DNA from: Eledone cirrhosa
Lineage: Eukaryota
DNA: 64,000 bases
NCBI GenBank assembly: GCA_964016885.1
Contig: OZ024742.1
Location: 100,378,001-100,442,000, forward strand
Direction: 5' to 3'
Within the stretch, counting starts at the first letter, position 1; each line of letters begins with the position of its first letter. Below the pieces are notes generated by a model. That model did not search any database and was not told where the DNA came from. It was given only the letters and a program-made list of their open reading frames with translations. The position numbers and the translations under genes were made by a program. Below are positions 5,535 through 62,854 of the stretch, piece by piece.

Positions 5535-6145
5535 TGTGTGTGCGTAGCAAGAGGGAGAGATAGGTATAACAAAGTCGAAGGCAGTAAATTAGAATGTACC
5601 TCATTTTATTATTTACTTAATCGATGGCATATGTATTTAGATGGTAACTGTATATGTATTTAGATGGTAACGGTTACGACCTCCTCAGACAGCTATTTCG
5701 CGAACAGAAAGTTCCATGAATAAAAATAAGATGAACAAAAATAAAATAAAAACTTCTTATGCAATTTCCATTCAATGATATGCCACGGCTGGGTTATTTT
5801 TGTTTCCTCAAATCTCTGCCTGCTGACACATACACATACAAACACATTACATATATACATATATATATATATATATGTGTGTGTATGTGTGTGTGTATAT
5901 ACTTTAAAATGTACACACAGATATATATATATATATAACTTTGATAACTTTGATAGGTTTCGGACAGTATTGGCCCAAGCCATGTCTAACTTAATAGCAC
6001 CACCTGGCATACATATATAAGTTTATCCCGGGTTCCATCGTGGGCAACCACAGTAAGTAAGGCACTCAATACAAACAGAGTATAAATATTTAATATAGAA
6101 TTGACTTCTACAGGACTAGAAGTGTTTCATTCGGGAGAAATCATC

Positions 6146-6196
6146 GGCTTCCTGATGATTTCTCCCGAATGAAACAGTTCTAGTCCTGTAGAAGCC
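6146..6196 (+). ncRNA. Type I hammerhead in fold-back insert 5938-6224
   Basis: GGCTTC CTGATGA T TTC TCCC GAA T GAAA CAG..CTG TA GAAGCC. An inverted partial copy is at about 6086-6145. Confidence 0.85.
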
Positions 6197-6220
6197 ATTT
6201 TTATATTAAATATATATATG

Positions 6221-36096: not shown

Positions 36097-36213
<117 letters not shown>

Positions 36214-36291
36214 CATGTTGTATAAAGCTGTGCTTGAAGCGAAATCCTATTTCTTTTTTATTATAAGTTGAGCCAACTTATGTAGCTTCAT

Positions 36292-36340
36292 ATGCAAATG
36301 AGATTAATCACCTCATTTACATAGACGAGAAAAATATATA
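36292..36340 (+). promoter_or_regulatory. Candidate snRNA-type promoter (octamer, PSE-like TCACC, TATATA)
   Basis: ATGCAAAT at 36292, TCACC at 36308, TATATA at 36335. Confidence 0.45.
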
Positions 36341-36359
36341 TTCTCAGCTGTCTTCTAGA

Positions 36360-36449
36360 CCAGCAGTCGCAAGCGGTGGGAGGCACCGTCCTGACGAATG
36401 CCAGTTAAGCCTCAAATGCATAGACGGTTGTCCCCCTTGCTTCTGCTGG
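36360..36449 (+). ncRNA. Rod-like hairpin RNA containing a hammerhead (GAAA mutated to CAAA)
   Basis: CCAGCAG/CTGCTGG and GCAAG/CTTGC enclose ACCGTC CTGACGA ... CAAA TGCA TA GACGGT. Confidence 0.75.
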
Positions 36450-36764
36450 ACATCCCCAGAGGGCGTTAGCCCCCCGGTGTTTGCATAGCTTTTTGTTCAA
36501 CACTGACACAGGAACGATGTACTATTTTCAAGATTATTAGCTATCGTCAGCATCGTATACCTTCCTGCCAGATGGTTGAACGTCTGAAAGTATATACTTT
36601 CCTTATACATATTAACGGCTGAGCAGCCTAATTTGCATATCGAGTGAGTTTAGTCGGCTGGGCGCATTTAAGTAAGTGCCGTACTAAGGGTGAGAAATGA
36701 AATTTCGTTTCATTCTATTCCATTTATCGTTTTCGGTGCGCCCAGTCGACTGAACTCACTCGAT

Positions 36765-36812
36765 ATGCAAATTAGGCTGCTCAGCCGTTAATATGCATAA
36801 GGAAAGTATATA
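36765..36812 (+). promoter_or_regulatory. Candidate snRNA-type promoter; copies at 57229-57276 and inverted at about 36591-36638
   Basis: ATGCAAAT at 36765, TCAGCC at 36781, TATATA at 36807. Confidence 0.45.
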
Positions 36813-36847
36813 CTTTCAGACATTCAACCATCTAGCAGGAAGGTGTA

Positions 36848-36888
36848 CGATGCTGACGATAGCTAATAAGCTTGAAACTAGTACATCG
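36848..36888 (+). ncRNA. Minimal hammerhead; copies at 36515-36555 (minus) and about 57312-57352
   Basis: CGATG CTGACGA T AGCT AATA AGCT T GAAA CTAG TA CATCG. Stem I is extended by CAGGAA/TTCCTG. Confidence 0.92.
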
Positions 36889-37100
36889 TTCCTGTGTCAG
36901 TGTTGAACAAAAAGGTGACGTGGTTGCCTAAACACTGTACGGCGTAATTCAGGCTGTTTGTTTGTTTACAAACAAACAAACCGAGCATTATAATAAATGT
37001 TCGGTAAACCGATACGTGCATATATATGTGTGCATGTATGTATATATATACATACTACTGTACGTCTGTATACATATATGTATGTACGTATACATACATA

Positions 37101-37169
<69 letters not shown>

Positions 37170-37365
37170 TATATATAACGAAGGAAGTGTGGTAAGGAAC
37201 CAGATGGACCATAACGCACCAGAGTACTCAATACTTAGGGTAGTAGAGTGGGTAATAGGAAAATGTTTAACCCCGACGGCAGAGCTCAAGCCGTTTCGAC
37301 GGCTATTGCTGGAGTCCAGAAATAGCCCTCGAAACGGTTTGAGCTCTGCCGTCGGGGTTAAACAT

Positions 37366-37451
<86 letters not shown>

Positions 37452-45682: not shown

Positions 45683-45963
45683 GACATCCTCAGGGAAGTG
45701 ATGTAATGCAGACAGTCAGACATTATATGTATGTATCTATCTAAAAAGAAAAAGACTAAGAATTATAGAGAGAGATCGCTAAATCGCCTAATGTGGTCCC
45801 TACGGCATTGAAAATTTGAAATTTTTTTTGCTCAGAACACTCCCTGAAACATAAGTATTACATGTGTAAAGTTTGAAAACAGTCGGTTTTGTGGTTCTCG
45901 AGTTTTAGGGATTCAAACTCACACACACACACAGACAGACATCCTCAGTTTTATATATATAGA
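45049..45963 (-). mobile_element. Non-autonomous Helitron
   Basis: The minus strand starts TC and ends with hairpin CCCG..CGGG followed by CTAG. It is inserted between A and T and has internal direct repeats. Confidence 0.85.
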
Positions 45964-46054
45964 TATTTCAAGGATACCACAATTTTGGTACGCCCTCATC
46001 AGATAAAATACAAAATTTGTTTTATAAATCTGATGAGAGCGTACCAAAATTATG

Positions 46055-56824: not shown

Positions 56825-57547
56825 CTTGACCGACCAGTCTGTCGGGCGCCAATCGGCGCAGCTGGCCAGAGCACGTCGTGCTGTTTTAGCCATAAGATAA
56901 CGCCATCCCACTGGCTGGGCGGACAGGCCGGTACTCATTTCTACAGCTGAGTAAACTGGAGCAACGGGAAATAAAGTCTCTTGCTCAACGTGAAATAAAG
57001 TATCTTGCTCAAGGAAACAACACATCACCCGGTACGAGAATTGAACTCACAACCTTTCGATTGCAAGCCCAATGCTTTAACCGCTATATATATATATATA
57101 TCTGTCATATATATATATCGAGTGGGTTAATCGGCCGGGTGCACTGAAAACGATAAACGATAAACGATAAACGTTTCATTTTTTCCGTTTATCGTTTTCG
57201 TTGCACCCGGCCGATTAACCCACTCGATATGCAAATTGGGCTACTCAGCCGTTAATATGCATAAGGAAAGTATATACTTTCAGACGTTCAACAATCTGGC
57301 AGGAAGGTATACGTTGCTGACGATAGCTAATAAGCTTGAAACTAGTACAGAGTTCCTTTGTCAGTGTTGAACAAACGAGCAACGATGGTTGCTAGACACT
57401 ATGGCTTAATACGGGATGTTTGTTTACAAACACACCGAGCATTGTAATAAATGTTCGGTGAATCCATACGTACATGTATATATGTGTGCATGTATGTATA
57501 TATATATATACATACTACTGTACGTCTGTATACATATATGTATGTAC

Positions 57548-57804
<257 letters not shown>

Positions 57805-59848: not shown

Positions 59849-61420
59849 TAAAGGAAGTTGCGACTGAAAGGCACTGGCTTTTGGCTTGTGTGTTCAGCAT
59901 GCCTTTTCAGGGATGTAGTAATATTTGCAGGGTGTGTAAAAATAAGTCTAGTCTTGGTATTGCTTTAGTCGAATTTATCATAGTAATAAGCTAGTCTGAT
60001 AGATAAAGCGGCGTAGGGGCTAGAGAACTACTTGCCTGGTACTTTATTTTCATGACCCCAGAAGGATGAAGGGACATTTGCCCTCGTTGGGATATGAAAT
60101 AAGACTGTAAAGAGCTGTAACTAAATGCAGCAAAACATTTTGTCCAAGGTTCTAACGATTCTAGTAACTTCATAAATAATAAACGAGATTGTGTAAATGC
60201 GTGAAACATTGTTCGTTGGGTTCTGTTCGCCTTCCATCACTTACGTTATACAAACTATTCGATCAACAGAATATCATCCGCTTGATATTAACGTGTATGA
60301 GCCTTAAAGTAATCCTCAGGGAGATTCAGCCAGGTTTATGTGATAATCCTAACATTTTAAATTAAAAGTACAACTCATATTTTTCCAGCTACGTGGACAG
60401 GAGCAATATTAAATCGATCAGTTCAGAAATCGAACTCACGACCTTACGATTGCGAGTCGAACAACAAGCCACGCGCTTTCACAGTGTTGTGATGGTGCCG
60501 TATATACGAGCTTCATATGATGTACGTATGGTTGAATGTTGTGTGTGTGTGGTTCTATGTTGGGGGTTCACCAACAATGAAATAATTGTGTGATACAGTG
60601 AGACAGACGTTAATCATAAACAGTAGTCACACAAACATAAGGAACACGAACTAAGTGACGACCACATACATGTGTGCCTGTGTATGTATGTATATATATA
60701 TATATAATGCTTACACACATGTATATATTATTTATACATATAGTTATATATATATATAACTATATATTTACGCATATAGTTAAATATATATATATATTCA
60801 TTTATTTATATATTTATATACTCATTATTATTATGGCTAAAAAGTGAGTCTTGTTTCTCTGGAGTTTCGCCTGTTTATCACAGGGCCATCAGACAGGGTG
60901 ACCAGACAAGACATTGTCTAAAGTCTCTCTCAAACCCAGAGGATCATAAGGCAGGTGCTTAACATTAAGCGACTAAGAGTACAAGACTGACCCTAGGACA
61001 GGACACCAGTCCATCGCAGGTTTAAACCTCCCAGCTACTACTGATACACATGTTTAGCTGAAACGAAGTGTTTGGCTCCAGGAATCGAACCCACAACATT
61101 ACGATCCAAAGTCCAACCACCCTAATCACCAGGCGATGGGCCTTCTCGTGTATATGTGTGTATGTATGTATATATATATATATATACGCAGGTGTGAGCC
61201 CCGCGAGTTGGAGTGGCTCTTCCAGTGCGTCTCTCTCGCCGTCCTCCTGGGAAACGCCTTCTCCATTCTGTCCGCCGGGGCTGTGGGTGGACCCCATCGC
61301 GTGCCGTTGTAGTTGTTGTAGAAGAAACAGGAAGACAACATCTAATTTTTTACCTCTTCAATGTGACTCCCTTCCAAACAATTAGAGACTCACCCTATAT
61401 ATATATATATAGATATATAT

Positions 61421-61586
61421 AAGTGGTTACACAACAGTTAGTTCACCATACCGAGAACTGAGGATCCACTAAGGTGAAACAATTGTTCTCGGTATGGGGA
61501 ACTAATTGTTGTGTAACCACTTCTACCTAACTCGTCCCATGGACTGAGTGGTCTACCACTACGGATATTACCTTCCAGTGTTCTAC

Positions 61587-62153: not shown

Positions 62154-62470
62154 GTAATAATAATAAATTTGAAGACTAAAATCCAAAGAGGGCTCGATAA
62201 GGATAAATATATGTCAAATATATAAGAACCGTAGAGCAAATATTTATTAAAATAACAGATTAAAGTTTAAGCAAAGAATCGCTGCTTTCACCCTTAACGG
62301 GATCTTCTGAAACTAACAAAGTCAATCTGTAAACGCAGAAGTGGATATTTCAAAAAACGTTGCAACTGGAGAAAGACAGGAAGACGATACTTTGGTTCGT
62401 GGAAACGTTCCCTGGCAAAGAGCGGGGAAAAACGAATATAATACGTCATTAATAGGAGCGGTGAAAAACA

Positions 62471-62854
62471 ATTGTCTACAAATGTAAGGTTGAAACACCC
62501 ACGTCCCGTAGGGCCTACATAGGGTTAACCGCCAATAGATTCAAGCAGCGTCTTTACATGCATACCCATTCTTTTCGTTACCCTCTTAGAAGGAATATGA
62601 CGTCACTTTCAGCTTATATCTGGAGTCTAAAAGACAACCACACCCAATTTAAGTTACACTGGGAGATCCTAGCTAGGGCTAGATCGTATAACGGAAATAA
62701 AAGACCATGTGACCTCTGCGCCGCTGAGGCCCTGGAAATCCTCTACGCCACAGACCACATCTTAAACAAAAAATCTGAGGCAATTTCGGCTTGTAAACAT
62801 AAATTGCACAAAACTTTCCTGTATTACAGCCCCACATTATATCCTAACGGATAG
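62471..62854 (+). pseudogene. PLE GIY-YIG endonuclease C-terminal fragment
   Basis: In-frame translation IVYKCKVETPTSRRAYIGLTANRFKQRLYMH...LHWEIL...CDLCAAEALEI...ILNKKSE. It shows VY/YIG, Arg, Glu and LN motifs plus a CxxC. Upstream is truncated or frameshifted (in-frame TGA at 62462). Confidence 0.9.

Follow-up and report, generated by a model that had tools for sequence, protein, structure and literature searches.

The window, i.e. the whole stretch of 64,000 nucleotides of the Eledone cirrhosa genome that was analysed (contig OZ024742.1), contains two adjoining hammerhead-bearing units, A and B. Unit A is a partial monomer of its family (about 280 of 320 nt) on the forward strand at 36208..36490, with (TA)n adjoining its 5' end and its 3' end cut at the start of the inverted arm of a family B insertion. 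This insertion is made up of an inverted 5' arm on the reverse strand (36489..36667), in which a second putative promoter module has its octamer at 36638, and of one circularly permuted monomer of about 440 nt on the forward strand (36665..37103) that has (TA)n at its end. The junction of A and B may have arisen by nesting or by template switching. A further forward-strand copy of family B, with a short 5' inversion, lies at 57115..57560 (octamer at 57229, hammerhead core at 57317); both repeats of unit B that the initial annotation had listed, the inverted one and the third copy, were thus found.

Direct inspection of the letters also located every motif that had been claimed for the two units. 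In unit A, the octamer-containing element TATGCAAATGAG lies at 36291..36302, with the octamer ATGCAAAT starting at 36292, and is followed on the same strand by TCACC (36308..36312, predicted position -57, where the host Pol II and U3 genes have their PSE core) and by a TATATA box (36335..36340, -30). The predicted transcription start is the A of CAG at 36365, i.e. at TATA+30, as judged from 29 of 30 copies and from the host rule described below. The element of unit A is that of the host U6, MRP and tRNA-Sec genes at -76 to -79, and it resembles the U3 element at -71 to -74. Unit B has the corresponding forward-strand element TATGCAAATTAG at 36764..36775 (octamer from 36765), TCAGC at 36781..36785 (predicted -56), a TATATA box at 36807..36812 (-30) and a predicted start, again the A of CAG at TATA+30, at 36837 (30 of 30 copies). 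On both strands of the window the octamer occurs eight times, and four of these occurrences (36292+, 36765+, 36638- and 57229+) have the full module with TCA(G/C)C and TATATA. The hairpins had been described as beginning about 25-28 nt after the TATA box; long hairpins are indeed present, but the starts predicted at TATA+30 (36365 and 36837) fall inside them and not before them.

The window contains other repeats as well, and the output of a repeat finder run over its whole length was dominated by (TA)n. From about 47100 there is a tandem array of a 37-bp unit that extends over more than 1.2 kb with 94-97% in-register identity. Further inverted-repeat elements with CUGANGA-like cores adjoin (TA)n at 6100-6200, 37200-37370, 45960-46050 and 61420-61520; these are probably ends of Penelope-like elements (PLEs), and similar pieces recur in the genomic loci examined. 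A 129-aa open frame on the forward strand (62465-62854) is near-identical to the C-terminus of a longer ORF at locus L270 and resembles a Penelope-type endonuclease fragment, with no match in Pfam.

The hairpins of A and B represent the canonical type I hammerhead: helix I has 6 bp, helix II 4 bp, and helix III is a short palindrome, a form that has been described as acting in dimers (PMC4209133). In unit A the hammerhead spans 36385..36428 on the forward strand (palindrome AUGCAU, predicted cut 36422/36423), and the direct monomer of unit B has an intact one at 36847..36889 on the same strand (palindrome ACUAGU, predicted cut 36883/36884), with 6 bp in helix I and a U-U at the base of helix II. 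Other copies of family A read ACCGUC CUGACGA AGGC-CAGUUAA-GCCU GAAA UGCA UA GACGGU, and B reads ACGAUG CUGACGA UAGC-UAAUAA-GCUU GAAA CUAG UA CAUCGU. An Rfam scan at the gathering score gave no match to any of the hammerheads of the window, which is why they were identified via motif, helices and covariation. A type I hammerhead could be parsed in 27 of 30 copies of each family, G12 being present in 24 of the 27 A and in all 27 B copies. Among seven aligned A and B copies, 8 of 12 pairs are altered on both sides, as many as in 0 of 500 shuffles, in a test that is inflated by the relatedness of the sequences. The A hammerhead of the window itself departs from the type I core, with CAAA for GAAA at 36413 (G12 to C), and has a helix II mismatch at 36399, and this copy is likely to be inactive; in run X1, G makes up 77,244 of 77,437 of the depth at 36413 and likewise nearly all of the depth at 36399. 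The hammerhead of the inverted B arm is damaged in helices II and III, and that of the copy at 57115..57560 is mismatched in part of helix I; their folding z values are weak (-1.20 and -1.66, respectively, as compared to -2.76 for A and -2.56 for B). We had considered hairpin A as a SECIS element, a Y RNA or a snoRNA, candidates that were dropped in view of the full hammerhead core in other copies. In an older family, C, 25 of 29 copies have U3:A8 as a compensatory change of the core, and PLE hammerheads are known to covary in this way (PMC4209133). In run X5 (organism B, share 0.20) a few contigs are similar to these elements. Contigs from three of the five runs, placed against the elements, showed neither starts nor ends, a result that has no bearing on expression.

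Judged by this anatomy and by what the genome holds of them, A and B are copies of two high-copy, non-autonomous, non-LTR hammerhead retrozyme families, and the proposal of non-autonomous hammerhead retrozymes is borne out by the hammerheads, the permuted and tandem monomers and the copy numbers. Searches of 3.0 Gb of genome sequence gave 1,954 candidates for unit A and 1,942 for unit B, and among the 40 scored of each family the full-length matches have 94-96% (A) and 97-98% (B) identity. The monomers, of about 320 nt in A and 440 nt in B, are circularly permuted, i.e. the sequence 3' of the hammerhead recurs 5' of the promoter. Head-to-tail spacing is 323 nt in the one natural case of A and 425-578 nt in 20 cases of B (two from the window's own A/B junction being excluded), and pure head-to-tail B arrays are present in the genome. 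Non-LTR retrozymes generally have monomers of 150-450 bp; those of A and B, like them, are found both dispersed and in tandem, without LTR or ORF. The pattern TATGCAAATKAG-N28-38-TATAWA has 22,889 matches in the genome as opposed to 553 for the reversed control, and TATGYAAAWKAG-N4-6-TCASY has 23,044 as opposed to 37; the first 100 listed matches of the former are B-type in 78, A-type in 13 and other in 9 cases.

The bodies of A and B share little sequence, as had been noted: their alignment score is 18 against a null of 17.1, a value reached in 119 of 300 shuffles, and no homology of the bodies was detected beyond shuffles. The similarity of A to C is marginal (10 of 300 shuffles as high), while family C (loci L206-L235) is related to B via intermediates, with body scores of 52-72 against a null of about 19. 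The description of A and B as unrelated thus applies to the bodies but not clearly to the module, given that older copies of the A lineage carry GAGGCTAATCAGC, which is almost identical to the TAGGCTAATCAGC of family C.

The way in which the copies are inserted has the hallmarks of Penelope-like elements, as had been proposed from the window. In the best 30 loci per family, a 5' inversion is present in 22 of 30 (A) and 18 of 30 (B), copies exceed one monomer in 18 of 30 and 23 of 30, and (TA)4 occurs at the 3' junction in 24 of 30 and 26 of 30, respectively, as compared to 12% of flank windows. The 3' ends fall into two clusters, about 40 nt apart in A and 60-70 nt apart in B, and target-site duplications are masked because the ends lie in (TA)n. 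5' inversions, partial tandems, a terminal tail and microsatellite targets such as (TA)n are traits of PLE insertions in the accessible part of the literature (PMC8557442). Inversions, partial tandems, (TA)n and alternative 3' ends 40-70 nt apart are likewise what would be seen if A and B were pseudo-LTR fragments of autonomous PLEs and the module were the PLE promoter (PMC8557442, as far as its accessible text goes). We regard this explanation as very improbable. The hammerheads are canonical and not of the minimal PLE type, pure head-to-tail B arrays would have to be accommodated, and a PLE coding fragment is present in just 5 of 90 A, B and C loci, where it appears incidental: no ORF is framed by any of these copies, and one is interrupted by a C copy. 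GIY-YIG candidates number 10,597 in this genome, which also has long ORFs with RT, one of them scoring for GIY-YIG too. Among the 44 PLE loci taken from these candidates, B copies occur in three and A copies in none. None of the 44 is framed by either family, and none qualified as an autonomous partner with sequence in common with A or B; at the two long-ORF PLE loci that were checked, the B octamers lie at least 1.4 kb past the end of the ORF.

The feature that A, B and C have in common is the module itself. The distance between octamer and TATA box is 43 nt in 27 of 29 A, 42 nt in 30 of 30 B and 43 nt in 22 of 23 C copies, TCASC lies 26-27 nt before the TATA box in all three families, and CAG, with its A as the start, stands exactly at TATA+30 in 29 of 30, 30 of 30 and 22 of 29 copies, respectively. 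The predicted start is 26 nt from the hammerhead core in A, 16 nt in B and 17-23 nt in C, and as this onward distance varies, the spacing of the start is tied to the TATA box. The commonest letter of the three families agrees in 24 of 26 motif columns as compared to 16 of 91 other columns; 18 of the 26 (octamer and TATA) served as anchors, and the non-anchor columns agree in 4 of 5 (TCASC) and 3 of 3 (CAG). Within families, the advantage of the motifs over neighbouring positions is weak (private changes outside CpG, p = 0.027, 0.092 and 0.667).

For comparison, host promoters were collected from the DNA upstream of Rfam matches to U6, U6atac, MRP, tRNA-Sec, RNase P, U1, U2, U4, U5, U11, U12 and U3. 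The set consists of the distinct promoters among the loci retrieved, and copies with no recognisable promoter, which look like retrocopies, were omitted (e.g. L074, L075 and L143-L149). Genes were assigned to Pol II or Pol III according to what is established for such genes in animals. All seven Pol III promoters (U6, U6atac, MRP, tRNA-Sec) have the element TATGC(A/T)AAT(G/T)AG with at most one mismatch at -76 to -79, 46-49 nt before a TATA box at about -30, and start at the G of TG. The 17 Pol II snRNA promoters all lack this element; they have YCAGY or TCAT at about -55 to -58 and mostly a TATA-like box near -30 and a downstream 3' box, and the start is A in 12 of the 17, the model starts of U5 and U11 being uncertain. 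Because most U1, U2, U4, U5, U11 and U12 promoters carry a TATA-like box, TATA is no mark of Pol III in this genome, and we rejected the rule that would equate the two. The U3 genes (L337-L342, L350, L351 and L356) are intermediate, with ATGTAAA(A/T)TA(A/G)G at -71 to -74, TCAT at -54 to -56, a TATA box and A as the start. Unlike the other Pol II genes they have no 3' box; their 3' DNA is T-rich, with T7 in L337, and in this animal the transcription of U3, or its termination, may be unusual. One U3 copy carries TATGTAAATTAGGC, a single letter from B and C.

Some further features of the host genes were seen along the way. The RNase P RNA gene (L175) has TCAGT upstream and no octamer, yet ends in a T-run. 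A U6 array on C19 (L064:153-370 and 1980-2200) has a unit of about 1.8 kb. In every unit seen, the U6 promoter is followed at a distance of about 560 nt by another octamer-like/TATA module with no U6 behind it, which is either a relic or a small RNA gene that lacks annotation. Many host genes have a distal motif at -257 to -288 in common, for which no clear counterpart was seen by eye in the retrozyme monomers. Helix I of the upstream A monomer had been a candidate for such a distal element (about -256), and was rejected: judged by eye, the L158 subfamily has not conserved it, and B has nothing equivalent.

Set against these genes, the idea of an internal snRNA-type promoter matching the host is supported by both sequence and spacing, while the U6/H1-type Pol III label that had been attached to it is not supported for A and B. 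Compared with the host Pol III genes, their octamer is 4-5 nt nearer to the TATA box, and in the TCA element and the first transcribed letter they agree with the Pol II and U3 genes. In other words, the module matches host snRNA-type promoters, but not the spacing and start letter of U6. The match to ordinary Pol II snRNA promoters is not complete either. The core position and start letter of A and B fit YCAGY/TCAT at -55 to -58 and a start at A, but A and B have a proximal octamer, and a search for 3' box words found none in the A monomer and one, inside the octamer, in a variant B monomer. It is the U3 promoter that A and B resemble in all these respects, i.e. an octamer-like element 40-44 nt before TATA, TCA at about -56, a start at A and no 3' box. 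In ungapped matching over -78 to -31 (156 gene-family pairs), A, older A, B and the B/C intermediates all match the U3 gene at L338 better than any other of the 26 host promoters (22-24 of 48, z 2.9-3.3), and for family C this gene comes second, with 25 of 48 as compared to 26 of 48 for the U4 gene at L322. Host U3 also differs from the retrozymes: it has ATGTAAA(A/T)T and TCAT where A and B have ATGCAAAT and TCA(G/C)C, its identity to A, B and C over this region is only 22-25 of 48, and it possesses the distal element. From these comparisons, "U3-like" is the most fitting name for the module, which is a hybrid between both snRNA classes of the host.

Position-specific matrices give a similarly mixed picture. 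A first Pol II matrix (8 promoters, -60 to -42) scores A at -5.5, B at -4.8 and C at -0.6, with the 95th percentile of the background at 2.4. With a core-realigned PSE matrix of 17 Pol II promoters, C scores 10.6, the B/C intermediates 8.4, older A 4.7 and B 2.6 (tail probabilities 0.0008-0.011), while family A, at -1.8 (tail 0.063), is not significant; the host Pol III genes score -9 to -17 with this matrix, family D (see below) -10.2 and U3 -4 and -6. The Pol III distal matrix gives 10-13 bits for A, B and C, after a shift of 4-5 nt only.

Our main reading is that the A and B monomers carry a host U3/snRNA-type promoter that likely drives their own transcription, more likely by Pol II than by Pol III, and we put its probability at about 0.6. 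Pol II appears somewhat likelier because the geometry of A and B best matches the host U3 promoter; the spacing, the start letter, the T6 in A and the precedent of the newt all lean this way. The same retrozymes could instead use the module as a Pol III type 3 promoter, with U3 itself transcribed by Pol III and monomers made by occasional read-through of T-runs, which we hold to be rather unlikely. That the 12-nt element matches every host Pol III promoter and none of the 17 Pol II ones speaks for Pol III, as do the shifted distal matrix, the missing 3' box of U3 and the T7 at which one U3 copy ends. However, the octamer-TATA distance of A and B (42-43 nt as opposed to 46-49 nt), TCA at -56/-57 and the CA start in place of TG point to Pol II. 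T-runs bear on the question from both sides. The natural A monomer has T6 ahead of the next promoter, and 13 of the 21 spacings assigned to B (one being the A/B junction of the window itself) contain T5-T8, runs that would end Pol III transcription before the promoter was copied; on the other hand, one B subfamily has T4 only.

Family D was found by a pattern with longer spacing (873 matches as compared to 153 in the control; loci L177, L178, L184-L186, L189, L194, L196, L200, L204 and L300-L319). This older hammerhead family has, to judge by its letters, true U6 geometry: the octamer-TATA distance, for which the pattern allowed a range, is 47 nt in 25 of 30 copies and 46-49 nt in 27 of 30, TCASC is absent, G stands at +1 in 11 of 30 with TG as the commonest start, and the best identity is to U6 (z 3.1). 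The copies are old and indel-rich, with many starts displaced by indels, and have a decayed type I hammerhead with a T-run directly 3' of it. As U6 geometry coexists with this T-run, T-runs were no bar to spread in family D, which favours Pol III as an option for A and B as well. Several other old loci among 20 examined have U6-like spacing, some with hammerhead remnants; in addition, L285-L294, L298, L131, L154 and L203 are old octamer/TATA loci with spacings of 42-48 nt, several of which have hammerhead remnants.

A different explanation would be that the retrozymes are expressed solely by read-through, which is the published default (PMC7761336), and that the module is a relic of capture or has a role in the RNA, e.g. 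in folding or in recognition by the reverse transcriptase. The weak conservation of the motifs within families is in line with this, as is the fact that the CAG at the predicted start is also base-paired in the hairpin. We nevertheless consider it improbable. Families with bodies that can no longer be aligned have still kept the motifs and the exact distances of these to TATA, and two distinct host promoter geometries recur in separate families. One natural A monomer and one B monomer were folded as circles, and by eye the module has no structure common to the two.

If the A and B monomers do carry a U3-like promoter of their own, as we favour, the following cycle can be envisaged. Transcription would be initiated by SNAPc and TBP, from the A that lies 30 nt past the TATA box and 16-26 nt ahead of the hammerhead core. 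Without a 3' box in the monomer, the polymerase would continue into the next monomer of a tandem copy, and two hammerheads, probably forming a dimer via the palindromic helix III, would release a monomer that holds the promoter of the next unit. Once the released monomer had been circularised by a host ligase, the circle would serve a Penelope-like RT/GIY-YIG protein as the template for copies inserted at (TA)n sites, and permuted 1.x-mers with inversions would result. Excision and circularisation are on record for other metazoan retrozymes in the accessible text of PMC7229834. By such a cycle a promoter upstream of the start, which is normally lost in retrocopies, would move along with the element.

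More broadly, we speculate, with well under even confidence, that retrozymes captured snRNA promoters of both polymerase classes and kept them as the circle makes an external promoter internal. Were this true, the genome would contain some 23,000 dispersed SNAPc-type promoters, U3/U1-like in A, B and C and U6-like in D and others, and the constitutively high expression of metazoan retrozymes, from newt satellite 2 to the mussel, might find an explanation. Related mobile families may then show a switch of polymerase class. The comparison also yields a grammar of the snRNA promoters of this genome, including U6 promoters that are useful for guide-RNA expression and an unusual U3 promoter.

It is instructive to compare A and B with the known hammerhead retroelements. 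Non-LTR retrozymes have been described in coral, the mussel Mytilus galloprovincialis and axolotl (Cervera and de la Peña 2020, PMC7229834). The earlier statement that nothing of the kind was known in molluscs thus needs correction, as the mussel retrozymes are described there and shown as circRNAs, while it stands for the promoter, of which we found no description. In the accessible text of that paper these elements share with A and B the type I hammerhead, tandem monomers of 150-450 bp, low GC, the lack of LTR and ORF, and co-occurring PLEs that are proposed as their mobilisers; the U-U at the base of helix II in B recalls axolotl HHR_Amex2. Their expression and circles are shown there, and an analysis of element promoters is absent from the main text. 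The elements described here differ from the mussel, coral and axolotl retrozymes in a host-matched, snRNA-type module that is kept across families. In a 2020 review, metazoan retrozymes seem promoterless and reliant on read-through (PMC7761336), and yet they accumulate highly in all tissues tested. A conserved, host-matched putative promoter with start sites predicted to the base offers a direct test of this puzzle. In our literature search, which covered subscription and older papers thinly, there was no paper on a promoter in invertebrate retrozymes and no account of cephalopod retrozymes. Non-LTR retrozymes, including those of mussel, and the snRNA promoter of the newt are known, and what appears to be new is that retrozymes of an invertebrate match a promoter of the snRNA type.

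In newt satellite 2 the promoter is reported to comprise an octamer and a PSE. The snRNA promoter of this satellite is used by Pol II (Coats, Zhang and Epstein 1994, cited in PMC2220036), and the hammerhead satellite Sm-alpha of schistosomes has an internal Pol III promoter (cited in the same source). Sm-alpha is similar to A and B in having its own promoter within a hammerhead repeat, with the distinction that the module of A and B is of the upstream snRNA type, as far as can be told from that secondary source. With PLEs, A and B have in common 5' inversions, partial tandems, a terminal tail, a preference for (TA)n and hammerheads (PMC8557442 and PMC4209133, in their accessible parts). They differ from PLEs in having no ORF, a canonical and not a minimal hammerhead and no sequence in common with the sampled PLE ends. 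Newt satellite 2, as far as the citing paper describes it, is likewise a hammerhead repeat with an internal snRNA-type promoter. Our comparison ties that result to an invertebrate and suggests how promoters located upstream could acquire mobility. The present case differs from the newt satellite in that another phylum is concerned, that several families and two geometries, U3/U1-like and U6-like, are present, and that the module includes a TATA box.
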